Assembly: GCA_964499875.1 (NCBI GenBank)
Contig: CAZCPZ010000001.1
Location: forward strand, 1 to 24,000
Reading direction: 5' to 3'
DNA: 24,000 nt
Source of the DNA: an uncultured Thermoplasmatales archaeon
Lineage (GTDB): Archaea > Thermoplasmatota > E2 > DHVEG-1
The first letter of the stretch is position 1. Each line of letters begins with the position of its first letter. The notes beneath the pieces are model-generated. The model did not search any database and was not told the DNA's origin. It saw only the letters and a list, made by a program, of their open reading frames with translations. This document shows positions 1 through 24,000 of this stretch, piece after piece. Made by a program: the position numbers and the translations under genes.

Positions 1-1
1 A

Positions 2-76
2 TGCTCCCGTCGGGATTTGAACCCGAGTTGCCGGCTCGAAAGGCCGGAATGATTGACCGGACTACACCACGGGAGC
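2..76 (-). tRNA. tRNA-Glu (anticodon UUC)
   Basis: The reverse complement folds as a cloverleaf. Acceptor GCTCCCG/CGGGAGC, D-arm GTGTAGTCCGGTCAATCAT (typical of archaeal tRNA-Glu), anticodon stem CCGGC/GCCGG with loop CTTTCGA (anticodon TTC), T-arm TCGGG-TTCAAAT-CCCGA, discriminator A. No CCA is encoded within the window. Confidence 0.9.
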
Positions 77-78
77 AG

Positions 79-150
79 CAGCCCTGCCCAGATTCGAACT
101 GGGGTCGCTGGCTCCAAAGGCCAGAATGTTAACCACTACACCACAGGGCT
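79..150 (-). tRNA. tRNA-Gln (anticodon UUG)
   Basis: The reverse complement AGCCCTGTGGTGTAGTGGTTAACATTCTGGCCTTTGGAGCCAGCGACCCCAGTTCGAATCTGGGCAGGGCTG folds as a cloverleaf. Acceptor AGCCCTG/CAGGGCT, anticodon stem CTGGC/GCCAG with loop CTTTGGA (anticodon TTG), T-arm CCCAG-TTCGAAT-CTGGG. It lies 2 nt from tRNA-Glu. Confidence 0.88.
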
Positions 151-8390: not shown

Positions 8391-9980
8391 TTATGTTAGA
8401 GTCTTCAGTAAGTAAACACCTTTATCTTTGAATCCGAGTTGTCTATAGTAATTCCTTACACCTATCCCACTTAATACAAATAGATGCCTCTTATCGAATT
8501 CATCTCTGCAGATTCTCTCAGCCTCCTCGATGAGTGTCTTCCCGTAACCTCTATGCTGCCATCCATCCATGAGGTGTTCCCCAATAGGTATTTCTCTACC
8601 AACAACTTTGAGTTCCCTTATGATCATACAGGGGTGTCTAGATAACTCTGGTCTATGTGGATTAGTGATATCTCGTAGACGAAGATAACCTATTATAGCA
8701 TCGTTTTTCTCTTCTACTAGCGATAAGAAGATTTCTTCTCCTTCACTGGCAGGGTAATTGATAACATGGAGATTAATACTGTTCTCATCGATCTCCAACT
8801 GTTGACGTAGTAGTTTATGTCCAATCTCCCTGCAGCGGATACATCTACAGTGTGCATCATGTCTCTCCATATCTTCCTCTACTAGTTGACGTAGGTTACT
8901 CTTGGTTACACCAGCTGCTATATATGGTGCAGGTACATCTCTTTGAATTCGTTGAATACGAACCCATTCTGGGATAAAAGATTTAATCTTAGCTATTAGA
9001 TATGAGGCTTCCTCTGAGGTTAAAGGGTTATATCTACCCTTCTTCCATTCCTCATAAAGTGGAGTACCTTCTATAACGAGTGTTGGATATATCTTGATCA
9101 TATCTGGTCGGAAATCCGGGTTTTCAAATATAGTTTTAAAAGCTTCGAGGTCTTTATCTATATCTGAGGCAGGTAAACCTGGCATCATATGGTAGCAGAC
9201 TTTTAAACCACTTTCTTTAGCTAAACGAGTCGCTTGTATAGAGTCAGTTACAGTGTGCCCTCGTTTAATCTTGTATAGTATTTCATCGAATACTGTTTGT
9301 ACTCCTAGTTCAACTCGAGTAGCTCCTAGATGTAGAGATTGATCTATATGTTGTAGCCTGAACCAATCAGGTCTTGTTTCAACTGTTAAACCGACACATC
9401 GATGGGGCGCTTTTTCATTTCTTCTCTGTGCCTCCTCTAGAGTAGAAGAGGGATTTTCGTTTAGGGCATCTAGGCATCTCTTTATAAACCATTCTTGGTA
9501 GAAGAAGGGTCTAGCTGTTAGTGTACCGCCCATGATTATGAGATCTATCTTATCAGTAGCGTGTCCTATGATTTGAAGTTGAGTTAATCTACTCTTTGTT
9601 TGTAGGTATGGATCAAATCTATTGTTGTGTGCTCTTAGAGCAGCTGGTTCATAACCAGTGTAGCTCTGAGGGGTTCCTCTTTGTGGTCCACCTGGACACG
9701 GTGTGCATCTACCATGCGGACACTTTTCTGGGCTTGTCATAACTGCTATGATTGCTACCCCTGATATTGTTCGCATTGGTTTAGTTCTAAGAACCATTAG
9801 GACCCTCCTTTTATCCTCCTCCGGTAGATTCCCTGGTATATACTGTAATATCTCACTGTCAGGAGGTATCCTCTTCAATTTGTATTTCTCGCATAACTGT
9901 ATTTTTAAACGATGCAGTTCTTCTTTAGATCGAATGGAGTTGGATAGGATATTATCTATGATCTCAGAGTATATATTCAT
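8391..9980 (-). CDS. elp3: Elp3-type tRNA uridine(34) modification radical SAM / GNAT acetyltransferase
   Basis: Radical-SAM cluster region SPEKCPHGRCTPCPGGP, a central TIM-like core (VETRPDW, RVELGVQTV), and a C-terminal GNAT (HRGYGKTLIEEAE). Length 529 aa. Confidence 0.93.
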   Translation of the reverse strand: MNIYSEIIDNILSNSIRSKEELHRLKIQLCEKYKLKRIPPDSEILQYIPGNLPEEDKRRVLMVLRTKPMRTISGVAIIAVMTSPEKCPHGRCTPCPGGPQRGTPQSYTGYEPAALRAHNNRFDPYLQTKSRLTQLQIIGHATDKIDLIIMGGTLTARPFFYQEWFIKRCLDALNENPSSTLEEAQRRNEKAPHRCVGLTVETRPDWFRLQHIDQSLHLGATRVELGVQTVFDEILYKIKRGHTVTDSIQATRLAKESGLKVCYHMMPGLPASDIDKDLEAFKTIFENPDFRPDMIKIYPTLVIEGTPLYEEWKKGRYNPLTSEEASYLIAKIKSFIPEWVRIQRIQRDVPAPYIAAGVTKSNLRQLVEEDMERHDAHCRCIRCREIGHKLLRQQLEIDENSINLHVINYPASEGEEIFLSLVEEKNDAIIGYLRLRDITNPHRPELSRHPCMIIRELKVVGREIPIGEHLMDGWQHRGYGKTLIEEAERICRDEFDKRHLFVLSGIGVRNYYRQLGFKDKGVYLLKTLT

Positions 9981-10138
9981 CTCCTATAGAGATCAATGGG
10001 GTTTACTAGGATAAAAAACTTATGTATAAAAAGAAAGTTTGGGCACTCAATAACTATAGAGTTATAATGGTCCTATAAATGACACAATAAATTTATTTTT
10101 CAATAAAATTTTAAATAATAAATATTCTATGTCTCTAT

Positions 10139-10504
10139 TTGATGGTGTTGAGAGTATTCTATGTGGTTGTGCTCCTAGTTTCACTGCTTCTAACCCCTAT
10201 GTTATCGATGTGTCAGGATATCTCCTCTAGTAGTATTTTATCTGGTGGAGTATACTATGTTGCTCCATGGGGAGATGATGATAACCCTGGTACTATAGAT
10301 AAACCTTGGCGTACCATTGGTAAAGCCGCTGATACACTTGAAGCAGGAGATACAGTATATATCAGAGAAGGTGTATACTATGAGAGGGTCATACCAAGGT
10401 ATTCTGGTACTCAAGGTAGTTATATAACATATGCTGCTTTCCCTGGGGAGAATGCAACTATAAGTGGTAAGGAATTAGTTTACCTGATGATCTCACGGGT
10501 TTAA
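10139..10504 (+). CDS. N-terminal fragment (signal peptide + DUF1565-like start of a right-handed beta-helix protein), interrupted by a frameshift
   Basis: Signal-like MVLRVFYVVVLLVSLLLTP, then YYVAPWGDDDNPGTIDKPWRTIGKAADTLEAGDTVYIREGVYYE (pectate-lyase-fold N-cap pattern). The ATG at 10142 is a more likely start than the TTG at 10139. The frame ends 33 nt after the point (10469-10471) where homology switches to the -1 frame. Confidence 0.7.
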   Translation: MMVLRVFYVVVLLVSLLLTPMLSMCQDISSSSILSGGVYYVAPWGDDDNPGTIDKPWRTIGKAADTLEAGDTVYIREGVYYERVIPRYSGTQGSYITYAAFPGENATISGKELVYLMISRV

Positions 10505-10611
10505 TCTATATTGCTGATAAGAGTTATATTAAAGTAGAGAGATTAAATATCAAGGATGTTGGACCTCACGATAATAATGCTGGTATACTAGTATATAATT
10601 CTCATCACATA

Positions 10612-12633
10612 GTGGCTAAGGATAACTATATCTATAACACTAGTTCCTCTGGTATAGGTGTTTGGGAGAGTAGCGATATAGTTGTTGATGGAAACGAAGT
10701 AGTTTTAGCTTGTAATGATGGAGAGGAAGAGTGTATAACGATTGCTGGTACTAAAGGTTTTGAGGTTAAAAATAATCTTGTTCATCATGGTGGACCAGGT
10801 ACACTTGGTGGAGAGGGTATAGATATCAAGGATGGTTCTAGAAATGGTAGGGTTTATAGAAACAAGGTTTATCATCTGAATAGGATAGGTATCTACGTTG
10901 ATGCTTGGGATAAACATACTTACAGTATTGACATCTACCAAAACATTGTATATGATTGCAATGCATATGGTTTCGCAGTGGCTTCAGAGAAAGGAGGGCT
11001 ACTAGAGGAGGTAAGGATCTATAATAATGTTGCGTATGGTAATAGTATGTGTGGTATAGGTGTAGCTGGTTGGGGTGAACGTGTCTTTAGGCATCCTATG
11101 AGGGGTATAGTGATAATGAATAATGTTTTCTATGATAATGGCAGGGGAGACTGGGGTGGGGGGATCTCAATTGAGAATAGGGATGCAGAAGATATTGTTA
11201 TTAGGAATAATATTTGTAGTCAAAACCTTCTGTTTCAGATACAAGTAGAGGTTAAGATACCAAATCTAGTGGTGGATCATAATTTGATTGATGGGTATAG
11301 GGGTTATGAGACAGAGATTCGTGGTGAGAATTATGTAGAGGGTGATCCATCGTTTATGAACCCCAGTCTAGGTGATTTTCATCTAACGAAGGGATCCCCA
11401 GCTATAGATAATGGCTCCTCTAATGGTGCCCCTGGTTTCGATTTCGATGATAACTATAGGCCCCGTATGAATGATTATGATATAGGTGCTTTTGAGTATC
11501 CTAGAACAAAGTATTATGGAGTAGATACTATTGAGAAGGAAGAGTTTTCATTCCTCAAGAATCATTTAGGTGGAAACCTAGCAGGTGTAGCATTAGAATG
11601 CAGTGTTGAGGATTGGTGGGAAACCTTGAGGGAGGCTGAGAGGAATAATATTAGGCTTATTATATGGCCTCTTGGTCATGGTCACCAGTATACCCCTTGG
11701 AAGTGGAATGGTACAGGTTGGGATATCTCTGAGGGTTTAGAGGTTTTAGAGTATGCAGAGAGTTATGTTACTAGTGGTGGAGAATCCTTATTAGCTGTGT
11801 TAATGTCTCATGAACCATTCTGGAATGATGGGAATCCTTTTACAACAAGTCAGATGAAACAACTATATTCTAAGCTAAAAAGTGTTGCTCCTCATGTTAA
11901 ACTCTATGTTGCTTTTGGTTGCCTATCTTGTTTTGATGTTAACCCTGATACTAGGATTGAGAATGGCATCGCGGATGTAGCTGGTATATGGCTACATTGC
12001 TTTGGTGGAATGGAAGGAAGCATAGAGGATGCATTGAATAGGATTGATAGAGACTATGAGTTGATACAAGAGAAGAATTTGGATATGGATTTATTTTTTG
12101 CTATTCAGACTTTTGGCATAGAGGGTACAAGATACAGGATGCCTTCTGCTAATGAGATGCTAGAATTTGGCAGTAGGGTTTTTGAGAAGAATAAACTCGA
12201 TGGAATCTTCTGGTATCCATGGGGTAACCCAGCTGGTTACACAGAGTGGTTAGAGAAGGATAGATATGATGAGAAGGGTAATGATAGGTGGAGTGTTGTA
12301 CAGTATTTCTCAGATGTTTATATGAATAAGAGTGAAGCATTGTATGTAGAAATAGTTAGACCATCCAACTACCTGTATGTGTTTGATAATGAGATACTAC
12401 CTTTTGGTTATCCTTTGATTATAGGTGGAGTAACTATTAGAGTAGAGGTATCTAAGGATGTTGATGGAGTTGAATTTTATATTGATAATGTCTCGAAGTT
12501 TGTGGATACAGAGGAGCCTTTTGAGTGGTTCTGGGATGAGAACATTATTGGTTGGTCTGAAATAAGGGTAGTGGCTTATGGAGATAATGAACAAGTAGAT
12601 GATACATTATCTACTCTAGTGATTAATACTTGA
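10612..12633 (+). CDS. C-terminal portion of the same beta-helix protein: parallel beta-helix repeats + TIM-barrel-like domain + Ig-like tail
   Basis: Periodic beta-helix repeats (NYIYNTSSSGIGVWESSDIVVDGNEV, NLVHHGG, NKVYHLNRIGIYV, NIVYDCNAYGF, NNVAYGNSMCGIGV, NNVFYDNG, NNICSQN). After about residue 300 come an alpha/beta region and a C-terminal beta-sandwich-like tail. This frame is open back to 10471 and encodes further beta-helix sequence (GISLPDDLTGLIYIADKSYIKVERLNIKDV...), so the GTG at 10612 is probably not a true start. Confidence 0.7.
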   Translation: MAKDNYIYNTSSSGIGVWESSDIVVDGNEVVLACNDGEEECITIAGTKGFEVKNNLVHHGGPGTLGGEGIDIKDGSRNGRVYRNKVYHLNRIGIYVDAWDKHTYSIDIYQNIVYDCNAYGFAVASEKGGLLEEVRIYNNVAYGNSMCGIGVAGWGERVFRHPMRGIVIMNNVFYDNGRGDWGGGISIENRDAEDIVIRNNICSQNLLFQIQVEVKIPNLVVDHNLIDGYRGYETEIRGENYVEGDPSFMNPSLGDFHLTKGSPAIDNGSSNGAPGFDFDDNYRPRMNDYDIGAFEYPRTKYYGVDTIEKEEFSFLKNHLGGNLAGVALECSVEDWWETLREAERNNIRLIIWPLGHGHQYTPWKWNGTGWDISEGLEVLEYAESYVTSGGESLLAVLMSHEPFWNDGNPFTTSQMKQLYSKLKSVAPHVKLYVAFGCLSCFDVNPDTRIENGIADVAGIWLHCFGGMEGSIEDALNRIDRDYELIQEKNLDMDLFFAIQTFGIEGTRYRMPSANEMLEFGSRVFEKNKLDGIFWYPWGNPAGYTEWLEKDRYDEKGNDRWSVVQYFSDVYMNKSEALYVEIVRPSNYLYVFDNEILPFGYPLIIGGVTIRVEVSKDVDGVEFYIDNVSKFVDTEEPFEWFWDENIIGWSEIRVVAYGDNEQVDDTLSTLVINT

Positions 12634-12855: not shown

Positions 12856-15414
12856 GTGGAGAATAAAACATGGTTCTACTTGGTATTAGTAATTAATCTA
12901 TCAATTCTTTCTATTCAATGGTCTAACCTAGAGAATGTTAACCAGTGTTTCCTGAATCCACCTAAGATTAAACATTTGATGGAGGACACAATTACCTATT
13001 TTTCAGTACCAGAGGGTTGTAAACTAGATATAACATTGCATCATATATGGATGTATGGTAACTCCACTTTCAGGGTTTTCAATGAAACCGGTGAGATTTA
13101 CAAGGAGGTTGTTTTTACTAATAATGAGAGTGATGTAACAAAACATGTCTTCTTTAACCAATCTGGTACTTATAAGATGGTTGCTTTTGGAACTGGTTTC
13201 TCATATGATCTAGAGTTTAATGGTTATAGTTCCAATTGGGGTTTCGTTGTAGCTGCTTTTCCACATAAGGGTTTATTTAGACTTAGAGAAGGTGAATCCA
13301 TAAAGGTTTTCTTTAAAGTGAAAGGTAGAAGCTTCTACTTCTATGCTACTGAGGACTTTGATTTAACGAGGAGAGATGGTTATATAGAGGTCTATAATCC
13401 AGAGGGGGATAAGAAAGCTAGTTTCCATCTGATCTCAAATATCCTAGATAACTGTTTCCAGCAGAGTGTTGAGTTGAAGAAGAATAGTGATGATGAAGAG
13501 TTTTGGTATGCCATATTATATGGTGAGGGGAGTAGGACTGCTAAGCTAGGTTTATGGGTTAACCAGAGTAACTATGATTACCCAACCGGTTTAACTACTT
13601 TTTTAACAACCAAACCAGAATACTATTTTAAACCTTGTTTCAAGAGTCGATGTATAGATATAGAGGTTTATGGTGAAATCACTAAAAAAGCACTTGTAGG
13701 AGCAGCTGGTTATCCTTATCGTTATACTGATACCATCTATAATTATACGAGTGAACTTAATCTAAAGACCTTTAATAAATATGTTAGTTGGAGGTGGAGG
13801 GAGAGAGATGAGGATGCTAATCCTAGAAATGATGATAATGATCCTTTTCATATAAACTGGAAGGGGTTTGATTTTAGAAGTTTTGATGAGAGATTCAGTT
13901 TCTTCAACAAACTAGGTATAGCTCCCGTGCTTAACTTGAAATGGAGTAGAGATTGCTTCTTATCTAAACATCCAGCAATCTGGGATGAGAATGATATACA
14001 GGAATACGCAGAGTTTTGTTTAGCCACGGTTATACATTGTGTCGCACCTGATCTAGAGGATCCACCGAGTAATAGAACACCCTATAATATTATGGGTATA
14101 CAGCTTCTAGGTGAACCTAATATACTACTTGAGGAGGAGCTAAATATAGATTCTGCTTTAGATAAATATATTGAGATTCTAAAAATAGTTGGTAATAGGA
14201 TTAAGGATTACCCTGATGGGAGAGTTAATAGTGTAAAGATTTTTGCTCCTGGTATAGGTAGTGATGAACTAGGGGAGTATGGAAAAATATACTGGGTTTC
14301 TCGTATACTTAGAGAAGCAGAGGAATATGTAGATGTGATTTCATGGGATGAATATTATAAGTGGCTGTTAGAGGAAGTAGATAACTATGGTAGAGATACT
14401 AGGGAGATGATTAGTTTAATAAAACACCTGGGTTACGATAAAGAGGTGGGTATGTGTGAATTTAACCTTAGAGGTGGTATACCAACTTCTCAATACTTCT
14501 TTGGCTCTAAGTACTCTGAGTTATATTTGTTTGGCGCCATGGCTAATAGTATCAATAATGGTATGAGGTATATCATCTATTATAGTTTGGTGGATTCATG
14601 GTATGAACCCAGGTTTAAAGGATTAATATCCTCTAATCCCATGCCACCCTACTCAAATATACCTCTTTTAACTAGGAAACCACAGTTTTATTCAATGAAG
14701 ATACTGGGAGAGATATGTAAGGGTTCTATACTCAAACTATCATATGATGCCTCGCAGTTTGATTGTATAGCATCATATGATGACAAGGTTTATAGAATGG
14801 GTTTATCGAATAGATACGAGGGAAAAACCATTATTAAGTTTAATCTAGATAAGAACTTCAAGGTGAAAGTATACAGTGTGGAAAAAGATTCCATAGAATT
14901 CCTCTACGAGAGTTGGAGTAATGAAACCATAGTGATGCCTCCTTGGAGTATATATTATGTTGAAGGAGTTATAGGTGAGTCTAAACCTGATCTCGAGTGT
15001 AGTGGGGAGCTTGTGTGGAGAAATACTAAACCTAATTCTAGTGTACATGGTTATTTCTATGTTGAGAATAAAGGCGATTCTCTCTCCATGCTTAACTGGG
15101 AGATCACTGATTACCCTAGTTGGGGTAACTGGTCTTTCAACCCAATGCGAGGAGAAAACTTGACACCTATAATTAGTCCTATTAGAGTAGATGTAACTAT
15201 TGATGTACCAGATGAGGATAACAAGGTTTTCACAGGGTATATAACAGTTACTAATCTAGATGATTCTATGGATACCTGTAGTATACCAGTTATGATTTCA
15301 ACATCTAGTAATAGATGGTTTTATCAAACCCATCTCGTTAACAACTTGTTTAAACCCCATTGGAGGTTTATCGTTGAGTATAATAGAAACCTTTGGTCTC
15401 ACAAAGAGGTTTAA
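12856..15414 (+). CDS. Large secreted protein: N-terminal beta-rich region, clan GH-A-like (beta/alpha)8 core, C-terminal CARDB/Ig-like domain
   Basis: GTG start followed by a hydrophobic signal-like segment. Colinear with the GH39-like protein at 2621-4123: IQLLGEPN (Glu 14113-14115) vs WEIWNEPD, VDVISWDEY vs IDFFSWHCY, MCEFNL (Glu 14458-14460) vs LTEWNI. C-terminal LECSGELVWRNTKPNSSVHGYFYVENKGDS...WGNWSFNP...FTGYITVTN is a beta-sandwich pattern common in archaeal surface proteins. Dense N-x-S/T sequons. Confidence 0.6.
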   Translation: MENKTWFYLVLVINLSILSIQWSNLENVNQCFLNPPKIKHLMEDTITYFSVPEGCKLDITLHHIWMYGNSTFRVFNETGEIYKEVVFTNNESDVTKHVFFNQSGTYKMVAFGTGFSYDLEFNGYSSNWGFVVAAFPHKGLFRLREGESIKVFFKVKGRSFYFYATEDFDLTRRDGYIEVYNPEGDKKASFHLISNILDNCFQQSVELKKNSDDEEFWYAILYGEGSRTAKLGLWVNQSNYDYPTGLTTFLTTKPEYYFKPCFKSRCIDIEVYGEITKKALVGAAGYPYRYTDTIYNYTSELNLKTFNKYVSWRWRERDEDANPRNDDNDPFHINWKGFDFRSFDERFSFFNKLGIAPVLNLKWSRDCFLSKHPAIWDENDIQEYAEFCLATVIHCVAPDLEDPPSNRTPYNIMGIQLLGEPNILLEEELNIDSALDKYIEILKIVGNRIKDYPDGRVNSVKIFAPGIGSDELGEYGKIYWVSRILREAEEYVDVISWDEYYKWLLEEVDNYGRDTREMISLIKHLGYDKEVGMCEFNLRGGIPTSQYFFGSKYSELYLFGAMANSINNGMRYIIYYSLVDSWYEPRFKGLISSNPMPPYSNIPLLTRKPQFYSMKILGEICKGSILKLSYDASQFDCIASYDDKVYRMGLSNRYEGKTIIKFNLDKNFKVKVYSVEKDSIEFLYESWSNETIVMPPWSIYYVEGVIGESKPDLECSGELVWRNTKPNSSVHGYFYVENKGDSLSMLNWEITDYPSWGNWSFNPMRGENLTPIISPIRVDVTIDVPDEDNKVFTGYITVTNLDDSMDTCSIPVMISTSSNRWFYQTHLVNNLFKPHWRFIVEYNRNLWSHKEV

Positions 15415-16327
15415 CTCCTTTACTGCTGTTAATAGGGTATCTTTTAGTGTTGAGGAGGGCGAAATTTTTGGTTTCCTAGGTCCTAATGGTGCTGGTAAAA
15501 CCACTACGATTAAGATGCTTACAACTCTGCTTCACCCCACTGAGGGATCCGCCACTATCGCTGGTTATGATATTAGGAGGAATAGAAATGAGGTTCGCAA
15601 GGTTATAGGCGTGGTATTCCAAGATCCAGCACTGGATACAGAGCTCACTGGCAGGGAGAATCTTGATTATCATGCTCGTATGTATGGTATGAGTAGGTTG
15701 GAACGAGAGAAACGTATATCTGAGGTTCTCTCACTAGTTGATTTAGAGGATAAGAAGGATACACTTGTTAAGTATTATTCTGGTGGTATGAAACGTAGAC
15801 TTGAGATCGCTAGAGGGTTGATGCATCAACCTAGGGTGTTGTTTCTAGATGAACCTACTCTTGGTTTAGATTCAAAGACTCGTAGGCGTATATGGAGTTA
15901 TATTAGGGAGATGAATAAAAACGAGGGAACAACTATTTTTCTAACTACTCATTATATGGAGGAAGCTGATGTACTCTGTGATAGAGTGGGGATAATTGAT
16001 CATGGTTCTCTAATAGTAGTTGATACACCTAGGAGTTTAAAGAGTAAACTAGGGAGAGATGTTATAACTATTAAAACAAGTGATTCAGATAAACTATGTA
16101 ATATACTTGATGAGGAGGAATGGGTTCAGAAGAGCGAGGTACATGGGGGTATGGTTAATATAGGTGTTGAGAGAGGCGAAGAAAAGATTCCAGTGATTTT
16201 TGAGATTGCTCATAGACATGGGATCCATATAACCTCTATTAGTGTTAGGAATCCTACTCTCGATGACGTGTTTCTTCACTTCACTGGTAGAACCATAGAG
16301 GGGGATAAGAAGATTGGTTTTAGATAG
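15374..16327 (+). CDS. ABC-2-type exporter ATP-binding protein (DrrA-like)
   Basis: Walker A GPNGAGKTT, Q-loop VFQD, signature YSGGMKRRLE, Walker B LFLDEPTLGLD, H-loop TTHYMEEA. TTG is the only possible start upstream of the first conserved strand. It overlaps the preceding gene by 41 nt. Confidence 0.93.
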   Translation: MSIIETFGLTKRFNSFTAVNRVSFSVEEGEIFGFLGPNGAGKTTTIKMLTTLLHPTEGSATIAGYDIRRNRNEVRKVIGVVFQDPALDTELTGRENLDYHARMYGMSRLEREKRISEVLSLVDLEDKKDTLVKYYSGGMKRRLEIARGLMHQPRVLFLDEPTLGLDSKTRRRIWSYIREMNKNEGTTIFLTTHYMEEADVLCDRVGIIDHGSLIVVDTPRSLKSKLGRDVITIKTSDSDKLCNILDEEEWVQKSEVHGGMVNIGVERGEEKIPVIFEIAHRHGIHITSISVRNPTLDDVFLHFTGRTIEGDKKIGFR

Positions 16328-17081
16328 AGAGTTTCAAGCGATTTATGTTATGTGGCTTCGTCAGATGAAACGTTTTATTAGATCTAAGAGTAGAGTAGTT
16401 TCAACTATACTACAACCCATGTTTTTCTTATTCTTCCTTGGAGCAGGTTTTAGGAGAGCTAGTTTGGATGGAATAAATGATTACATCTCTTTTTTAACCC
16501 CTGGTATTGTAGCTATGGCTATCATGCTCTCATCTATGTTCGCTGGAGTCTCAGTTTTATGGGATAGAAAATTTGGTTTCCTCCAAGAGGTTCTTGTTGC
16601 CCCTGTTAGTAGGCTTTCGATTATTATTGGTAGAACCCTTGGTGGAGCAACTATTGCTATACTACAGGGATGTATTATTCTCATTATCTCTATTCTACTT
16701 GGAGCCTCTATATCTGGAAACTTGTTTCTAGCGGTTTTATTCATGGTTTTTATTGCTTTTACTGCTGTTGGCTTGGGTTTAGCAATTGCTTCTAGGATGG
16801 AGGATTTCCAGGGTTTCCAGTTGTTTATGAATCTACTGGTGATTCCTTTACTGTTTTTATCATCAGCTTTCTTCCCTGTGACAAGTGATTCTATGCTTAA
16901 AACTATAGCGTTATTTAACCCATTGTTTTATATGGTTGATGGTTTAAGAGGTAGCCTCATCGATGCTACTGTGGGTGTAGAGGTTGTTAACTCACCCTTC
17001 ATAGATTTAATAGCAGTTGTAATCATCTGTATTTTTATATTAGGCATGGGTAGTATCTTGTTTAGTAGAAGCGAGGTTTAG
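16314..17081 (+). CDS. ABC-2 family transporter permease
   Basis: Six predicted TM helices with an N-terminal amphipathic YVMWLRQMKRFIRSKSR segment typical of ABC-2 permeases. 14-nt overlap with the ATPase gene. Confidence 0.85.
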   Translation: MVLDREFQAIYVMWLRQMKRFIRSKSRVVSTILQPMFFLFFLGAGFRRASLDGINDYISFLTPGIVAMAIMLSSMFAGVSVLWDRKFGFLQEVLVAPVSRLSIIIGRTLGGATIAILQGCIILIISILLGASISGNLFLAVLFMVFIAFTAVGLGLAIASRMEDFQGFQLFMNLLVIPLLFLSSAFFPVTSDSMLKTIALFNPLFYMVDGLRGSLIDATVGVEVVNSPFIDLIAVVIICIFILGMGSILFSRSEV

Positions 17082-18714: not shown

Positions 18715-19140
18715 TTATGGTTTCTGGAGGAGGAATAAGCTTAGTAGTATTAATAGTAAGATTATTGCAAGTACCACCATTACCATTGTTATCTTCCAGT
18801 TTGTACCAAAGATAATGGGTATTGGACCAATTAATACCACGCCACCTCCATGGAAAGAGGTTTTCTTCTCTGGTTTCTCTTCAAATACTTCTCTTGTATC
18901 TAAAGGTTCCTTTGCTGAGAGTGATTCCTCTATTTCTACTTCTCCTAATCTACTTAGGAAGAATAGTATGAAAGATAGCATTATGAGTAGGAATCCTATG
19001 AATGCTGTTAAACCACTACCTATTAGAAATGGCATGATGAAGAATACACCTACTTCTACTTCCCCTATTGATACACCATATAATAGTAATGTTACTCCTC
19101 CTAGGAAACAGATTATGGAGAGGAGTTGCTTGGAATTCAT
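18715..19140 (-). CDS. Small archaeal membrane protein, DUF131/TIGR00304-like
   Basis: Two N-terminal TM helices, an acidic linker, then GGGVVLIGPIPIIFG and a final TM helix. The motif is recalled from the DUF131 family and was not verified by search. 4-nt overlap with the folD stop. Confidence 0.5.
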   Translation of the reverse strand: MNSKQLLSIICFLGGVTLLLYGVSIGEVEVGVFFIMPFLIGSGLTAFIGFLLIMLSFILFFLSRLGEVEIEESLSAKEPLDTREVFEEKPEKKTSFHGGGVVLIGPIPIIFGTNWKITMVMVVLAIILLLILLSLFLLQKP

Positions 19141-19997
19141 TTCTTCATCTCCATGCAGAGTTTAAACGTCTTAGTCATGTTTAGCAGGGAGCAAGCAATG
19201 GTTACTGGTCCTACGCCTCCTGGAACTGGTGTTAGGAAACCTGCTTTATCTTTAACTGTTTCAAAGTCTACATCCCCTCTCACTCCACTACTGGTTTTTG
19301 TTATACCAACATCTATCACACATGCTCCCTCTTTAATATACTCCTCTGTGATTAAACCCGGTACACCTGTAGCTGTCACTAGTATATCTGCTTTCACAGT
19401 ATATTCTTTTATATTCTTAGTGTATATATGACAAATTGTTACTGTTGCATCCCTATTTAACATTATTGTTGCTAATGGTTTACCAACTATGTGGCTATGG
19501 TTGATTATAACGATGTTTGAACCCTTTATTGGTATCTCTATGTGTTGCAATATTCTTAGTACAGCCATTGGTGTACATGGGATGATTCTCTCTTCCCCTG
19601 TTATCAGGGTTCCAATGTTATATGGTGTTACTCCCTCTACATCCTTAAAAGGGTTAATCTTTGATAGTATTCTATGTAGACTCAAGTGTTTTGGTAATGG
19701 GAGTTGTAGTAGTATACCATGTACCTCTGGGTCATTGTTTAACTCCTCTATTAATCTATATATTTCTCCCTCAGATGTATCCCCTGGTACCATGTATTGA
19801 GTGGTTTGTATACCTATATCTAAGCATGCTTTATCTCTAAGTCTTAAGTATAGTTTTGACGACTCATCCTCTCCTATTATTATACTAGCTATACTAGGAT
19901 TGATTTTGTAGATGCTTCTAAGTTGATCTAACTCTGCCGATACCTCTTTTTTGATCTCCGCAGCGATTCTCCTCCCATCTATAATAGTAGCGCTCAT
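19137..19997 (-). CDS. folD: Bifunctional 5,10-methylenetetrahydrofolate dehydrogenase / methenyl-THF cyclohydrolase
   Basis: IIDGRRIAAEIKKEV, YLRLRDKACLDIGI, HGILLQLPLP, CTPMAVLRIL, VIINHSHIVGKPLA, TPVPGGVGPVT are canonical FolD motifs. Length 286 aa. Confidence 0.93.
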   Translation of the reverse strand: MSATIIDGRRIAAEIKKEVSAELDQLRSIYKINPSIASIIIGEDESSKLYLRLRDKACLDIGIQTTQYMVPGDTSEGEIYRLIEELNNDPEVHGILLQLPLPKHLSLHRILSKINPFKDVEGVTPYNIGTLITGEERIIPCTPMAVLRILQHIEIPIKGSNIVIINHSHIVGKPLATIMLNRDATVTICHIYTKNIKEYTVKADILVTATGVPGLITEEYIKEGACVIDVGITKTSSGVRGDVDFETVKDKAGFLTPVPGGVGPVTIACSLLNMTKTFKLCMEMKK

Positions 19998-20039
19998 AAA
20001 ATCTCTTTGAATGAAAAAGAAAGGGTTAGTTAAAAAGTT

Positions 20040-20618
20040 TTAGATGAAGAAACCTGTTATAGAGATTCTGATCCAGTTGAAGAAACCCACGCCTTCTAGT
20101 TTTATATCACCATTCTTTATTGCTTGTCTAAACCCCTCTGGATTCATGGTTTCCAGTAGATGTCTCACTATTCTCTCTGTTGTATACACGTTTATAGTTG
20201 GATCTTTTATTGGTCCCTGTTGAAATTTTACTAGTTTACCCTTCTCTATGATTACTCCTATGGTTATCACTGCTCCATTATCCTTTGTTATAAACCAGTT
20301 CATCCGCTCATCTGTGAGATATTTACCTACATCATAGTTTTTAACTACTCTACTTAGTTGAAGGAAAAGGTCATCTTCTTTACCTATGGAGAGAAGCAGG
20401 ATTTTATATGCATCTAAGGATGTAACTCTACCGTCTCTATCCATATCCGCTATTGGATCCTCACCTATCTTACCTACAGCCATTTTTAGAGCTATGAGTG
20501 CATCTACACTTGTTATCTCCTCATCATTGTTAATATCTCCCGTTATTGTTTGAGCATTAATTATGGAAGCAGGGATGATAAATAGGAGAGAGGTTAGGGG
20601 GAGGAATCTATGCTTCAT
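20040..20618 (-). CDS. Secreted dockerin-containing protein with C-terminal SCP2-like domain
   Basis: Signal peptide (LLFIIPASIINAQ). Two 22-residue dockerin repeats, DINNDEEITSVDALIALKMAVG and DMDRDGRVTSLDAYKILLLSIG (20379-20540). The C-terminal ~105 aa end in ...NPEGFRQAIKNGDIKLEGVG, which resembles the SCP2 sterol-carrier fold signature (tentative). The ATG overlaps the upstream stop as ATGA. Confidence 0.75.
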   Translation of the reverse strand: MKHRFLPLTSLLFIIPASIINAQTITGDINNDEEITSVDALIALKMAVGKIGEDPIADMDRDGRVTSLDAYKILLLSIGKEDDLFLQLSRVVKNYDVGKYLTDERMNWFITKDNGAVITIGVIIEKGKLVKFQQGPIKDPTINVYTTERIVRHLLETMNPEGFRQAIKNGDIKLEGVGFFNWIRISITGFFI

Positions 20619-21178
20619 TTTCTTGACCCTCTATGCCTCTTATAGATAAATATAATTATTATTGAAAACATGAGTATAAATATTTCAAAACCAGGTGTTC
20701 CTCCTCCACCTTCTTGAGACGTTGAAGCTGCTGCGGCTTGGAAGTTTCCATGTTCTACTGTAACCTCTATATCTGCATGGCTATCTACATCATAGGCTTT
20801 AGCATTCTGTATCGTTACAGATGTTGAACCATTACTTAGAACATTAAAGGTTATCCTAGCTATTTCTCCATCACCATTTATACCATTAGAGTCAGCTATA
20901 CCTATAGTTATTATACCCTCATTATCAGTATTTGATGACAGCATCCCCTTAACTAGGTCTCCTTTCTCCACTTTTAATACTTCTAGTATTGATGGATCAT
21001 ATAGGATTGTTAAATCTATGCTACCAACGTTTACTGCATCTTCTACTATCACTGATACCCGTGTTTCTTTACCAATCTCCCCGCTGGTATCTGGAATTGT
21101 TATTGTTAATGCAGCAGTAGTTTGAATAAATAAGGCAAGTGATATGAGAGTAATTATTATAATCTTTAAAAACCTCAT
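20615..21178 (-). CDS. Cohesin-domain protein with PGF-CTERM archaeal sorting/anchor signal
   Basis: Signal peptide, then a cohesin-like module (ETRVSVIVEDAVNVGSIDLTILYDPSILEV...GDGEIARITFNV...VEHGNF). Ala/Ser/Gly linker, then GTPGFEIFILMFSIIIIFIYKRHRGSRK (PGF + hydrophobic helix + basic tail) at 20618-20710. Confidence 0.8.
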   Translation of the reverse strand: MRFLKIIIITLISLALFIQTTAALTITIPDTSGEIGKETRVSVIVEDAVNVGSIDLTILYDPSILEVLKVEKGDLVKGMLSSNTDNEGIITIGIADSNGINGDGEIARITFNVLSNGSTSVTIQNAKAYDVDSHADIEVTVEHGNFQAAAASTSQEGGGGTPGFEIFILMFSIIIIFIYKRHRGSRK

Positions 21179-21187
21179 TCTTTATCA

Positions 21188-21195
21188 ACCTCCTT
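21188..21195 (-). promoter_or_regulatory. Shine-Dalgarno sequence AAGGAGGT for the cohesin/PGF-CTERM gene
   Basis: The plus-strand ACCTCCTT at 21188-21195 reads AAGGAGGT on the minus strand. It lies 9 nt upstream of the ATG at 21178 and just after the upstream stop at 21198-21200. A similar GGAGGAG at 23987-23993 precedes the ATG at 23978. Confidence 0.6.
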
Positions 21196-21197
21196 TC

Positions 21198-23978
21198 CTA
21201 CCCTCCTAACCCTATATCAAAGGTATACTTTATACCCTTACTGTAACCCATCAGTAGATAGTTTGTTTTATCAGCTTGTCTCTCTGTGGCTTCCTCTAGT
21301 ATCTTAGCCGCATCTAGAGATGTTACTTTACCATCATTATTCATATCGCCAATTAGATTCTCCTCTATCTTCCCAACATACATCTCTAGAGCTAATAATG
21401 CATCTATACTTGATATCATACCATCTCCATTACAGTCCCCTTTTAGTAGATCCATGGAATTAGGATCCTCAACTGTGAATACACCATTTATTATCTCGAT
21501 GTCAACAGTGTTATCATTTACATCATTTGCAGAGGCTTCTAAGGTAATAGTTGTATAGTCTCCAGGATCGCCTGTAACATTGAAGGTTATAACTGCTACA
21601 GATCCGTTTCCACTGAATCCATCGGTGTCTACAAAAGCTATGCGAACCTCACCATCTAGAATGTTTGACTCGAATAGAGAGTCTGAAGTGAAGGAACCCG
21701 TTACTGCCGAGACAGCGGATAAAACACTAGGGTTGTATCTAACTATTAAATCCATGTTTCTTATATCCCTGGCATTCACCATTTGAATAGGTATCTCAAC
21801 GGTTTCATTCGGTGGCATACTTCTACTTTCGGTGAATAAAATAGTTTTATCACTACTAGTGGTACCACTTGGTATGCCACTACCAATTATACTTCTACCA
21901 TATAAATCTTGGTACATATCAGCTAAACCAGATGGTATACTAGAGTTATCTGTTGAACCCTGTCCGAAGCCGAATAAGTTACCACTCATAATAGTACCAA
22001 TGATACTAAGAGTTTGAGTATAGTAGCTACCAAGGTTTGAGACGAGGTAATCCAGTATAAGGTATCCATCCTCGCTGTCATAGTATACAACCGGTGTAAC
22101 CTGGTAGTATTTATCTTCATCTGTTATACCACCAGCGTAGTATACATGTATACTTGTTTCCTCCGTGAACTCTATTCTATGAGTAGTTACCTTCTCATTG
22201 GTTCTTTCTTTATTAGACCACCCTCCAAACCCAGGGATTTGACTAGCGATCTTATCAAACAAACTTCTAGATTTAATTGTTACACTATGAGTTGATTTTT
22301 CTTCATTGAAACTTGACTCTGACATCCTAATCCATGTCCATTGTTCATCTGGACCAATTGACATTCCATGAGCGAAACCTTGTATCTCATTGTTTCTATC
22401 ATAGTTTAGTAGATCCCTTGTTCTAGATGGATAGGTAGCTAGTACTCCATAGGTATGCACCGGGGAATCATATGGTATAGTACTAGGTGTTGGTCCCTGT
22501 ATTGGTACCATTATCAACAGTGTTTCTCCACTGAGTTCATCTGGTTTTATAATTGGGTACTCATAAACCTTATAGGTTGTAGTGACTGCAACCATGTAGT
22601 CCCTAGAATCTGCACTGAAACCATATCCAACCTCGGTTTCATATGTTGAACCAGTTGTTTTCTCCCATTTATTCGTAACCTTCTTAGATATTGTTATCTC
22701 ACCTTTAAATAAGCCACAGATTCTATTGAATATACCTGGGTCTCCACTTGTAGTGACAATTGAAACTGATTTTACACTCATAGAAGTTGATTCACCATGT
22801 TCATTCTCATACTTTGCATAGAATACACCTCTATCAGGTATAACAGATGGATCTCGAGGTGGAGCATTTATAACCGCTATTATTTGATCAGTAAGTGTAG
22901 CCTCTCCTTTATATGTTGGTTCTCCTACAACAACTGAGTCACCATTTACATCTCCAACAGTTAAACCATCAGATGTTTCATATTCTACATCAAAACTATC
23001 CAACTCATTTCCATTTAAGTTATAGATATGTATTCTATCATCGTGCGCATCACCGGTTACTATCTCGTCTAATCCATCTTGATTTACGTCTCCAGCAGCT
23101 AATTCATCTGAGCCATCAAAATGTGCATCAATTGGCACATAAAGTAGATGCCCATTTTGATCATAGATATAGATTTTATGATAATTGTTTCCCTCTCCAA
23201 ATATGATTTCTTCTAATCCATCTCCATCTACGTCTCCACATGCTACTTCATCATCTCCATTGAAGTGCCCTTCTCTACTTGGGTCATCACCGGCAGCTGG
23301 GAAATCATCTATCTCTCTAAGCTTGTTGGATCGACTTGTATCATATTTGAATATATGAAAGTAACCATCACTGTCATCTCCATGGATTATCTCATCTATT
23401 CCATCTCCATCTATATCTCCAGCGGCAATCCTGTCGCTCCTTGTGAAACCATCATCGATCTCATACCAAGCTATCTCGTTACCATTTATATTAAAAACCC
23501 TTAAACCTTTACCGTTTGGATCACTTGCATCTCCCAGTATAATCTCCTCTTTACCATCCCCATTTATGTCTCCAACTGCTAGGTCATCGTATCTCTCAAA
23601 ATCTACATCAAAATGGGTTATCTCTGAGCTACTTAGATCTCCGGAGCTAGGTGGGACATCATATATATGTATATCATCGTCACTTGCATCACCTATAACA
23701 ACTTCATCTACTCCATCTCCATCTATATCTCCAGCAACGATAGCATCATGATTTTCATAATTTCTACTGTGGTAAGAAGTACTTATGCCACCTATAGAAG
23801 GATGGCTACCATCCATCTCGAAATACCATATCTTATCTCCTCTATCTCCTAGTATGATCTCACCATTCATTATAATCTTACCTTTACCAACTGGTGGTGT
23901 ATCCTCAGCATTTACTATTATACCTACTGCTATTAGAATTAGTAGTATTCCACCAAGATATATTATGGTCTTGGACAT
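21198..23978 (-). CDS. Large surface protein: N-terminal signal/anchor, seven FG-GAP (integrin-alpha-like) repeats, unassigned core, cohesin module, dockerin module
   Basis: FG-GAP calcium-loop motifs AGDIDGDGVDEVVIGD, VGDINGDGKEEIILGD, AGDIDGDGIDEIIHGD, CGDVDGDGLEEIIFGE, AGDVNQDGLDEIVTGD and VGDVNGDSVVVGE, plus a degenerate first repeat. Cohesin-like ETVEIPIQMVNARDIRNMDLIVRYNPSVLSAV...GNGSVAVITFNV...INGVFTV (about 21471-21806). Dockerin GDCNGDGMISSIDALLALEMYVGKIEENLIGDMNNDGKVTSLDAAKILE (21294-21440). Confidence 0.85.
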   Translation of the reverse strand: MSKTIIYLGGILLILIAVGIIVNAEDTPPVGKGKIIMNGEIILGDRGDKIWYFEMDGSHPSIGGISTSYHSRNYENHDAIVAGDIDGDGVDEVVIGDASDDDIHIYDVPPSSGDLSSSEITHFDVDFERYDDLAVGDINGDGKEEIILGDASDPNGKGLRVFNINGNEIAWYEIDDGFTRSDRIAAGDIDGDGIDEIIHGDDSDGYFHIFKYDTSRSNKLREIDDFPAAGDDPSREGHFNGDDEVACGDVDGDGLEEIIFGEGNNYHKIYIYDQNGHLLYVPIDAHFDGSDELAAGDVNQDGLDEIVTGDAHDDRIHIYNLNGNELDSFDVEYETSDGLTVGDVNGDSVVVGEPTYKGEATLTDQIIAVINAPPRDPSVIPDRGVFYAKYENEHGESTSMSVKSVSIVTTSGDPGIFNRICGLFKGEITISKKVTNKWEKTTGSTYETEVGYGFSADSRDYMVAVTTTYKVYEYPIIKPDELSGETLLIMVPIQGPTPSTIPYDSPVHTYGVLATYPSRTRDLLNYDRNNEIQGFAHGMSIGPDEQWTWIRMSESSFNEEKSTHSVTIKSRSLFDKIASQIPGFGGWSNKERTNEKVTTHRIEFTEETSIHVYYAGGITDEDKYYQVTPVVYYDSEDGYLILDYLVSNLGSYYTQTLSIIGTIMSGNLFGFGQGSTDNSSIPSGLADMYQDLYGRSIIGSGIPSGTTSSDKTILFTESRSMPPNETVEIPIQMVNARDIRNMDLIVRYNPSVLSAVSAVTGSFTSDSLFESNILDGEVRIAFVDTDGFSGNGSVAVITFNVTGDPGDYTTITLEASANDVNDNTVDIEIINGVFTVEDPNSMDLLKGDCNGDGMISSIDALLALEMYVGKIEENLIGDMNNDGKVTSLDAAKILEEATERQADKTNYLLMGYSKGIKYTFDIGLGG
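22914..23876 (-). repeat. Intragenic array of about seven FG-GAP repeat units (about 140-185 nt each)
   Basis: Recurring GAT-rich D-x-D-G-D-G coding motif. An exact 24-nt duplicate TCCATCTCCATCTATATCTCCAGC occurs at 23400-23423 and 23712-23735. These are coding repeats, not CRISPR. Confidence 0.8.
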
Positions 23979-24000
23979 TCTTCTATCTCCTCCGGATCTT

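Follow-up and report, generated by a model that had tools for sequence, protein, structure and literature searches.

A conserved archaeal cohesin-dockerin gene cluster related to the Archaeoglobus fulgidus pair and predicted to form a lipid-anchored cell-surface complex

Cohesin and dockerin modules are scattered over many archaea without a known role (PMC9012536), and the genes for those of Archaeoglobus fulgidus have been on record since Bayer et al. 1999 (cited in PMC9012536). The locus described here raises the question of what an archaeal cell would build from such modules. It lies at the end of the window, by which we mean the whole stretch of 24,000 nucleotides (nt) that was analysed (contig CAZCPZ010000001.1 of assembly GCA_964499875.1, from an uncultured Thermoplasmatales archaeon), and comprises three genes, g1, g2 and g3, which together encode two cohesins, two dockerins, a beta-propeller and a putative anchoring signal. 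The most likely answer is a Ca2+-dependent complex that is held at the cell surface by a lipid anchor and serves in adhesion or ligand capture, and not a cellulosome. In its specific form, to which we assign a probability of roughly 0.6, the locus is a hierarchical surface-display cluster related to ORF2375/ORF2376 of A. fulgidus, with g2 as the anchor, g1 as the adaptor and g3 as the terminal subunit.

Coordinates are given in the forward-strand numbering of the window, and the three genes are read on its minus strand:

21198-23978, minus strand: g1, 926 amino acids (aa)
20615-21178, minus strand: g2, 187 aa
20040-20618, minus strand: g3, 192 aa
21179-21197, minus strand: spacer of 19 nt between g1 and g2, GAAAGGAGGTTGATAAAGA, as read from the sequence

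The spacer includes AAGGAGGT, which is Shine-Dalgarno-like, and the stop codon of g2 and the start codon of g3 share the ATGA at 20615-20618. All three products begin with a hydrophobic, signal-peptide-like segment, after which they are built, from the N- to the C-terminus, as follows:

g1, 22929..23891, minus strand: FG-GAP/VCBS beta-propeller, aa ~30-350, with repeated GD(I/V)(D/N)GDG.(D/E)E loops of the Ca2+ type
g1, 22014..22928, minus strand: middle domain of ~300 residues, aa ~351-655, without a Pfam model
g1, aa 656-710: linker, disordered in the AlphaFold2 (AF2) model
g1, 21471..21848, minus strand: adaptor-type cohesin, aa ~711-836
g1, 21279..21446, minus strand: type I dockerin, aa ~845-900, with Ca2+ loops DCNGDGMISSID and DMNNDGKVTSLD
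g1, 21201-21278, minus strand: Gly-rich tail, aa 901-926
g2, aa 25-144: cohesin, followed by a short Ala/Ser/Thr/Gly-rich linker
g2, 20618..20698, minus strand: PGF-CTERM-like, tripartite C-terminal sorting signal, aa 161-187, TPGFEIFILMFSIIIIFIYKRHRGSRK
g3, aa 27-76: dockerin, with Ca2+ loops DINNDEEITSVD and DMDRDGRVTSLD
g3, 20043..20378, minus strand: C-terminal alpha/beta domain of 112 residues, aa 81-192, predicted to have an SCP2-like fold

The modules were assigned from bit scores judged against the Pfam gathering cut-offs. The Cohesin model (PF00963, cut-off 24.1) scores 48.9 bits in g1 (aa 720-833) and 62.6 bits in g2 (aa 25-144), and Dockerin_1 (PF00404, cut-off 22.9) scores 30.8 bits in g1 (aa 846-892) and 29.4 bits in g3 (aa 27-71). 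The propeller of g1 is recognized by FG-GAP_3 (PF13517; 62.2 bits, cut-off 26.9, spread over five stretches) as well as by FG-GAP (PF01839; 33.4 bits, cut-off 22.1). Direct reading of the sequence reveals two complete D-x-N/D-x-D...D Ca2+ loops in each dockerin, and the AF2 models of g1 and g3 predict two helices per dockerin, which is the loop-helix duplication of type I dockerins. The g1 model (overall predicted local distance difference test score, pLDDT, of 73.8) likewise has the cohesin beta-sandwich, which many cellulosomal cohesins match at a template modelling (TM) score of ~0.8. Within the window, cohesins and dockerins are confined to g1-g3 (phmmer over the other open reading frames (ORFs), E<=1). 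An earlier note on this DNA, made from the sequence, had described three co-oriented, tightly packed genes with a 19-nt gap, an ATGA overlap and a 42-nt gap with T runs before folD, and had read from them two cohesins, two dockerins and FG-GAP repeats; all of this holds on re-reading the sequence and at the Pfam cut-offs. Its structural reading is largely right, and its claim of an undescribed machine is overstated.

When compared with the sequences of the PDB, the g1 cohesin (E 1.4e-11) and the g2 cohesin (E 1.2e-12) both find 2XDH as their best match, and a Foldseek search with the g1 cohesin model against PDB structures returns the same entry first (TM 0.87, root-mean-square deviation 2.1). 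The match of 2XDH to a PD40-type adaptor cohesin of an Archaeoglobus metagenome-assembled genome (MAG) amounts to 134 bits over the full length, including the insertion. In A. fulgidus DSM 4304 a dockerin is located in ORF2375 (aa 432-506) and a cohesin in ORF2376 (aa 29-162) (PMC9705933). The two modules formed the strongest and most specific pair in the microarray of Haimovitz 2008 and in Voronov-Goldman 2011, according to PMC9705933, and have since been used in hyperthermostable designer cellulosomes (PMC6394049). Because the A. fulgidus pair binds, docking of an adaptor dockerin onto a small cohesin is experimentally established for a related system, and by analogy the g1 dockerin would bind the g2 cohesin. 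With the A. fulgidus pair known since 1999 and 2XDH as the best match for both cohesins, the view that the system had not been described does not stand. A word-indexed search with g2 did not reach beyond close relatives, with no A. fulgidus protein of known name among them, and one pattern-based scan of a genome collection gave no g3 ortholog in A. fulgidus DSM 4304. No literature was found that combines dockerin, cohesin and SCP2, as the third subunit would, or that describes a PGF-type anchor on the small cohesin, the FG-GAP alternative to the adaptor head, or the occurrence of the system in Thermoplasmata-like archaea.

The gene order is conserved well beyond the window. A survey of gene neighbourhoods, as proposed in the earlier note, found the trio in related archaeal genomes: the series adaptor, anchor, dockerin-SCP2-like protein occurs in at least eight distinct loci (related loci are numbered with L), namely the window/L001, L005, L009 and L007 from Thermoplasmata-like archaea, L010, L011 and L012 from Archaeoglobales, and L020. 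For every g3 family member whose neighbourhood was retrieved on a long enough contig, L015 excepted, g3 ends a series made up of a propeller-...-cohesin-dockerin protein, a PGF-tailed cohesin protein of ~180 aa and a dockerin-SCP2-like protein of ~190 aa, and the junctions are either short spacers of ~4-25 nt (6 nt in L005, 4 nt in L012, 5 nt in L020) or stop/start overlaps. The assignment of g2 as anchor, g1 as adaptor and g3 as a dockerin-only protein, already put forward in the earlier note, is supported by a syntenic and translationally coupled trio. Neighbouring genes vary: folD in some loci, Peptidase_C92 and asparagine synthase genes in one, and a Pel9A-like beta-helix protein gene in another (L020). 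The g1 orthologs share 37-86% identity with an unchanged architecture. The Archaeoglobales trios are those of an Archaeoglobus sp. (L010), a Geoglobus sp. (L011, with a PD40 adaptor) and a MAG (L012, with a 997-aa FG-GAP adaptor). The FG-GAP adaptor of the Archaeoglobus sp. (L002-L004/L010, ~1-2732) is split into two to three overlapping ORFs, carrying the propeller/middle and the middle/cohesin/dockerin parts, in three independent assemblies; either the gene is truly split or a frameshift recurs.

The trio belongs, as its downstream part, to a larger cluster with five genes or more, and in this respect the three-gene unit of the earlier note was too small. The ENA contig L001 carries this locus as well (reverse-complemented, the window matches it from L001 position 1606, with 8 mismatches over 10,877 nt) and runs 1.6 kilobases (kb) further upstream of g1, where two further cohesin/dockerin genes directly precede the trio:

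L001 1-1363, just beyond window position 24000, minus strand of the window: second cassette

This cassette, separated from g1 by an AT-rich intergenic region of 264 nt, comprises the 3' part of a gene for a cohesin-dockerin protein and the gene for a 182-aa cohesin protein ending in TPGFEV...YNRK. The upstream adaptor is intact in the relative L005 (GCA_053938305.1), where it is a protein of 611 aa that joins a cohesin and a dockerin to a PD40 propeller. The five-gene form, with a PD40 cassette, an FG-GAP cassette and g3, is present in the window/L001, L005 and L009 ('Thermoplasmata archaeon B44_G15'), and a three-gene form with a PD40 adaptor only is found in L007/L008, beside folD. An apparent frameshift (+3 to +2) is located within the PD40-adaptor cohesin near L001 position 392, and recurs in the independent JGI/Logan contig L019. 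The identical first base of L001 and L019 points to a repeat at which assembly broke off. In all adaptors the dockerin is followed by a conserved, Gly-rich tail, of the form ...GY.KGIKY..(I)GIGG in the FG type and ...GGL.NFGNFGGFGG in the PD40 type.

Neighbour-joining trees of the modules reveal how the cluster was inherited. The cohesins fall into two deeply separated groups, anchors (including the g2 cohesin) and adaptors (including the g1 cohesin), the latter with PD40 and FG-GAP sub-clades. The dockerins form g3, PD40-adaptor and FG-adaptor clades, with the g1 dockerin in the last. Since every cohesin and every dockerin clade contains both Thermoplasmata-like and Archaeoglobales sequences, the modules have been inherited as orthologous sets and do not co-occur by chance; the window modules are orthologous to those of the A. 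fulgidus system.

The anchoring function predicted for g2 depends on its C-terminus, which consists of TPGFE, 14 hydrophobic residues and KRHRGSRK, that is, the PGF/hydrophobic/basic layout of a PGF-CTERM signal; within the window this type of C-terminus is unique to g2. The same arrangement of (T/S)PGFE, hydrophobic stretch and basic tail is present in all of the archaeal small cohesins extracted (11/11). When scored with TIGR04126, the PGF-CTERM model (cut-off 24.5 bits), the g2 orthologs of L012 (Archaeoglobales), L013 and L010 reach 25.5, 20.9 and 18.1 bits, respectively, of which the first passes. Because the layout is common to 11/11 orthologs and L012 passes the model, we treat the g2 tail as a putative PGF-type sorting signal, whose I/F-rich helix, in an AT-rich genome (G+C content ~37%), scores poorly. 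The PGF-CTERM assignment of the earlier note is therefore retained for its layout and its conservation, and not as a TIGR04126 match of the window copy itself. No member of the exosortase/archaeosortase family appears among the genes of the window, in the ~25 kb covered of the source genome, or among those of the related loci.

The full-length g3 family is small (n=9, 49-100% identity), and an AF2 model built on these nine members has a pLDDT of 71 overall and of ~70-83 in the C-terminal domain. Nearly all the top PDB matches of this domain in Foldseek are of the SCP2 type (E 6e-5 to 1e-2, target TM ~0.5), and include yeast, insect and human SCP2, 4jgx, 3bdq, A. fulgidus AF1534 (3bn8/3cnu), the SCP2-like domains of the alkylsulfatases SdsA1/PisA1, and UbiJ. 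At the sequence level, Pfam gave no SCP2 (PF02036) match in g3 at E<=1, profiles of the g3 family recovered no SCP2 among the PDB sequences, and hhalign of the family against human SCP2 (an approximate sequence) gave a probability of 0.4% and an E of 0.14, in an alignment co-linear along both. It is reasonable to regard the domain as SCP2-like at the level of the predicted fold; by sequence it is not a member of the SCP2 family, so that the SCP2-like domain of the earlier note survives as a predicted fold and not as a Pfam or profile match. This modelled resemblance is also the one thing that points to a lipid-handling role, the second half of the adhesion or lipid-handling machine that the note had envisaged.

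The domain is more widespread than g3. HMMER, run in full over 1.84 billion representatives, recovered 572 representative clusters at E<=1e-3, 82 of them at E<=1e-10, and a hydrophobic, signal-like start is present in 132 of the top 150 family members. The relatives are short stand-alone proteins, or carry the domain as an N- or C-terminal module of larger ones; no Pfam model covers it in g3 or in the ten relatives scanned, some of which have CARDB, GEVED or weak, sub-threshold caspase-like matches. Relatives of ~300 aa (such as P0155 and P0158) consist of the g3-type domain, an acidic linker and a C-terminal domain without Pfam match, whose sequence looks cupredoxin-like. Names and neighbours add little: there were no informative names among the relatives (one was labelled 'hypothetical protein'), and the stand-alone member P0145 is encoded in a housekeeping neighbourhood, which is uninformative. 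The metagenomic protein P0190 (742 aa) is of greater interest, having a PD40-like-cohesin-dockerin architecture with a g3-type domain fused right after the dockerin. A fusion of this Rosetta-stone type implies that g3 is functionally linked to the adaptors.

The head of the g1 adaptor, comprised of the propeller and the middle domain, accounts for ~60-72% of the protein. The propeller is modelled as regular four-strand blades at a pLDDT of mostly 85-93, and the middle domain, which is invariably located C-terminal to a g1-type propeller, as a moderately predicted mixed structure (pLDDT 58-85). Integrin alpha V, alpha IIb and alpha X are the top non-cohesin Foldseek matches of g1, at a low global TM of 0.17-0.19. 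The same combination of propeller and middle domain occurs without cohesin or dockerin in Thermococcus (fused to PKD), Persephonella, Deltaproteobacteria and other MAGs, at 32-41% identity, and it has 28 invariant alignment columns. The combination has the appearance of a portable head for binding or adhesion.

From these elements the following assembly can be proposed. The g1, g2 and g3 products would be exported, and g2 would be cut at its PGF-type signal, presumably by archaeosortase A, which would leave it lipid-anchored with its cohesin close to the membrane. The dockerin of g1 would insert, in a Ca2+-dependent manner, into this cohesin, so that g1 would display its integrin-alpha-like propeller and middle domain and at the same time offer its adaptor cohesin. 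The g3 dockerin would occupy the latter, making g3 the terminal subunit, whose SCP2-like-fold domain may bind a hydrophobic ligand. The upstream PD40 propeller-cohesin-dockerin protein, together with its own anchor, would form a second arm of the system, parallel to the first. The assembly would most likely serve in adhesion or in capturing ligands on the cell surface, and not in the degradation of polysaccharides.

Several observations weigh against this hierarchy. The pairing of g3 with the adaptor cohesin is one of several arrangements that the module count permits, and the SCP2 likeness comes from a medium-confidence model (pLDDT 71) at a TM of ~0.5, without support from sequence. The g2 product gives nothing at E<=1 against TIGR04126, and reaches sub-threshold scores only, with Heimdall-CTERM (19.0, cut-off 24) and Loki-CTERM (17.3, cut-off 19.9). 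L021 has an adaptor and a cohesin without g3, and L015, from an Archaeoglobaceae MAG, has g3 alone (9929-10516) with no cohesin gene within 10 kb. These exceptions imply that g3 is not an obligatory partner, and L015 that the dockerin-SCP2-like protein can be encoded apart from its presumed partners. Finally, in an alignment of the dockerins of the window (g1 and g3) and of loci L001-L015, helix 1 (ITSVDALxALKM) is near-invariant over the three dockerin types and both archaeal classes, so that the three types could compete for one cohesin. Helix 2 is type-specific in the same alignment: VTSxDAYKILLL in g3, VTSLDAAKILE in the FG adaptor and VxANDAxxIM in the PD40 adaptor. Each dockerin may, as judged from this alignment, present one common and one specific binding face; in this asymmetry the dockerins differ from the many bacterial type I dockerins that are internally two-fold symmetric. 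The g3 gene of L015 is surrounded by ribosomal-protein, aldehyde:ferredoxin oxidoreductase-like and other housekeeping genes.

Because helix 1 is near-identical and the module counts allow both equally, two other arrangements retain some standing. The first is a head-to-tail polymer, in which the cohesins of adaptors bind the dockerins of further g1 or PD40 adaptors and a chain grows from g2; g3, which has a dockerin but no cohesin, would then be a terminator or cap and not cargo. One cohesin and one dockerin on each adaptor chain, a helix 1 that makes cross-binding plausible, and the presence of g3 once per cluster regardless of the number of adaptors all speak for such a chain. We nevertheless consider it unlikely: the type-specific helix 2 argues for distinct specificities, and the strict pairing of one adaptor gene with one anchor gene in most loci fits 1:1 docking better. 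A display in which dockerins bind to the anchor cohesins only, with g1 and g3 as alternative occupants and the adaptor cohesins recruiting dockerin proteins encoded elsewhere, is improbable to the same extent. It agrees with the sole pairing shown by experiment, that of adaptor dockerin and small cohesin in A. fulgidus, with the conservation of helix 1 over the types, and with the five-gene loci, where four cohesins face three dockerins and cohesins are consequently left free. However, nearly all loci contain both the adaptor cohesin and the g3 dockerin, P0190 joins a g3-type domain to an adaptor, which suggests one assembly, and no further dockerin genes were found in the ~24 kb searched.

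A bolder reading would combine the parts of the cassette into a previously unrecognised surface organelle, a lipid-anchored chain or stalk of Ca2+-locked propeller adaptors tipped by a carrier of hydrophobic ligands, which would pass lipids, fatty acids, hydrocarbons or quinones at the surface or between cells. Stalk and carrier are taken together here, and this joint reading is unlikely; if true, it would provide a function for the enigmatic, 25-year-old A. fulgidus pair and define a new extracellular SCP2-like family of at least 572 clusters.

That the genes form no defined complex, and encode independent secreted proteins which happen to use common extracellular modules, would agree with the wide scatter of archaeal cohesins and dockerins without known role (PMC9012536). 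This is very unlikely in view of the gene order and translational coupling kept in two archaeal classes with differing neighbourhoods, the parallel clade structure of each module type, the fusion of an adaptor with a g3-type domain in P0190, and the binding of the orthologous A. fulgidus pair. A cellulosome-like degradation system scaffolding nearby glycoside hydrolases or beta-helix lyases is the least credible reading and was rejected, as the earlier note had done: a GH39-like protein, an esterase and a beta-helix/NosD protein are indeed encoded in the window, and a Pel9A-like beta-helix protein directly follows the trio in L020, but the window proteins carry neither dockerin nor cohesin, Pfam detects no carbohydrate-binding module (CBM) and no multi-cohesin scaffoldin in the window (there is one cohesin per protein), the dockerin carriers are propellers and an SCP2-like domain, and the neighbouring genes vary between loci.

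The locus has a wider significance. The A. fulgidus pair has long served as a thermostable connector in biotechnology while its natural role was still to be explained, and the locus places it within a cassette conserved in Archaeoglobales and Thermoplasmata-like archaea, whose components are a membrane anchor of the PGF type, a propeller adaptor in two interchangeable versions, FG-GAP and PD40, and a third protein that combines a dockerin with an SCP2-like domain. A 'function unknown' is thereby turned into a compact model that can be tested, as the Archaeoglobus and Geoglobus lineages include cultivable species. The cassette also offers new cohesin-dockerin pairs, presumably thermostable and possibly orthogonal, and draws attention to a large, mostly secreted domain family for which Pfam has no model.

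The remaining features of the window are the following:

23979-24000, minus strand: stretch 5' of g1, the last 22 nt of the window, with GGAGGAG
19998-20039, minus strand: gap of 42 nt between g3 and folD, with two T5 runs
19137-19997: folD, downstream of g3 and followed by a DUF131 gene; its identity is confirmed by Pfam
10612-12633, 12856-15414 and 15374-17081, plus strand: region of a beta-helix/NosD-like protein, a protein without Pfam match and an ATP-binding cassette (ABC) transporter pair
1-150, minus strand: predicted tRNA-Glu(UUC) at 1-77, which touches the window edge, and tRNA-Gln(UUG) at 78-150, without spacer

The gap before folD may mark the end of the transcription unit or contain a folD promoter, to judge by its letters. 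A scan of the operon with bacterial promoter and terminator models stayed below the shuffled expectation, these models not being relevant to an archaeal host. The beta-helix/NosD-like protein (673 aa, with Big_7) and the Pfam-less protein (852 aa) adjoin the ABC transporter pair and have no dockerins; in L007 and L020, too, genes for beta-helix proteins, again without dockerin, follow the cohesin-dockerin cluster directly or lie close to it.

Among known systems, the bacterial anchoring and adaptor scaffoldins (such as OlpA/OlpB/SdbA of Clostridium thermocellum and ScaB of Acetivibrio cellulolyticus) resemble the proposed hierarchy in having a cell-bound cohesin, an adaptor with dockerin and cohesin, and a dockerin-bearing terminal subunit, as well as type I-like dockerins with two Ca2+ loops and a cohesin fold that matches at a TM of ~0.8. 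The window differs by having one cohesin per protein, a PGF-type anchor instead of an S-layer homology (SLH) or LPXTG anchor, no CBM and no dockerin-bearing glycoside hydrolase. The cohesin/dockerin proteins of anaerobic methanotrophic archaea (ANME; Chadwick et al. 2022; Timmers et al. 2017) are archaeal, extracellular and non-cellulolytic as well, and have been proposed to serve in the surface attachment of functional proteins or in cell-cell contact (PMC9012536, PMC5244752). Unlike those of the window, some of these proteins are scaffoldin-like and have up to five cohesins, and dockerins are attached to ABC substrate-binding or S-layer proteins; these papers report no conserved set of three genes in which a propeller adaptor goes with an SCP2-like subunit.

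Comparable likenesses and differences apply to the single components. With archaeosortase A substrates, such as the S-layer glycoprotein of Haloferax volcanii, g2 has in common the PGF motif, the hydrophobic helix, the basic tail and a Ser/Thr/Gly-rich linker before them, although it stays under the cut-off of every curated CTERM model. The predicted order of helices and strands in the g3 domain resembles that of the SCP2 fold proteins (SCP2, SdsA1, UbiJ and AF1534), whereas g3 is predicted to be extracellular, bears a dockerin, and belongs to a separate, Pfam-less family without significant sequence similarity to them. With the integrin alpha adhesins, g1 shares its FG-GAP repeats, their Ca2+-type loops and the beta-rich domains behind them, but it has no beta-subunit partner and its middle domain belongs to no known family.

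The closest relative is the A. fulgidus system. In ORF2375/ORF2376, as in all related loci, a large protein with cohesin and dockerin precedes a small single-cohesin protein, and a non-cellulosomal A. fulgidus cohesin, 2XDH, is the nearest PDB entry for both cohesins of the window. The head of g1 is an FG-GAP propeller with a middle domain, in contrast to the PD40 head of the Archaeoglobus adaptor that matches 2XDH, the PD40 paralog of the window organism being encoded upstream; and the window adds a third gene, for a dockerin with an SCP2-like fold, whereas the literature consulted credits A. fulgidus with one dockerin. The locus is a variant of this non-cellulosomal type of cohesin-dockerin system that differs in the head of its adaptor and has one more conserved subunit.

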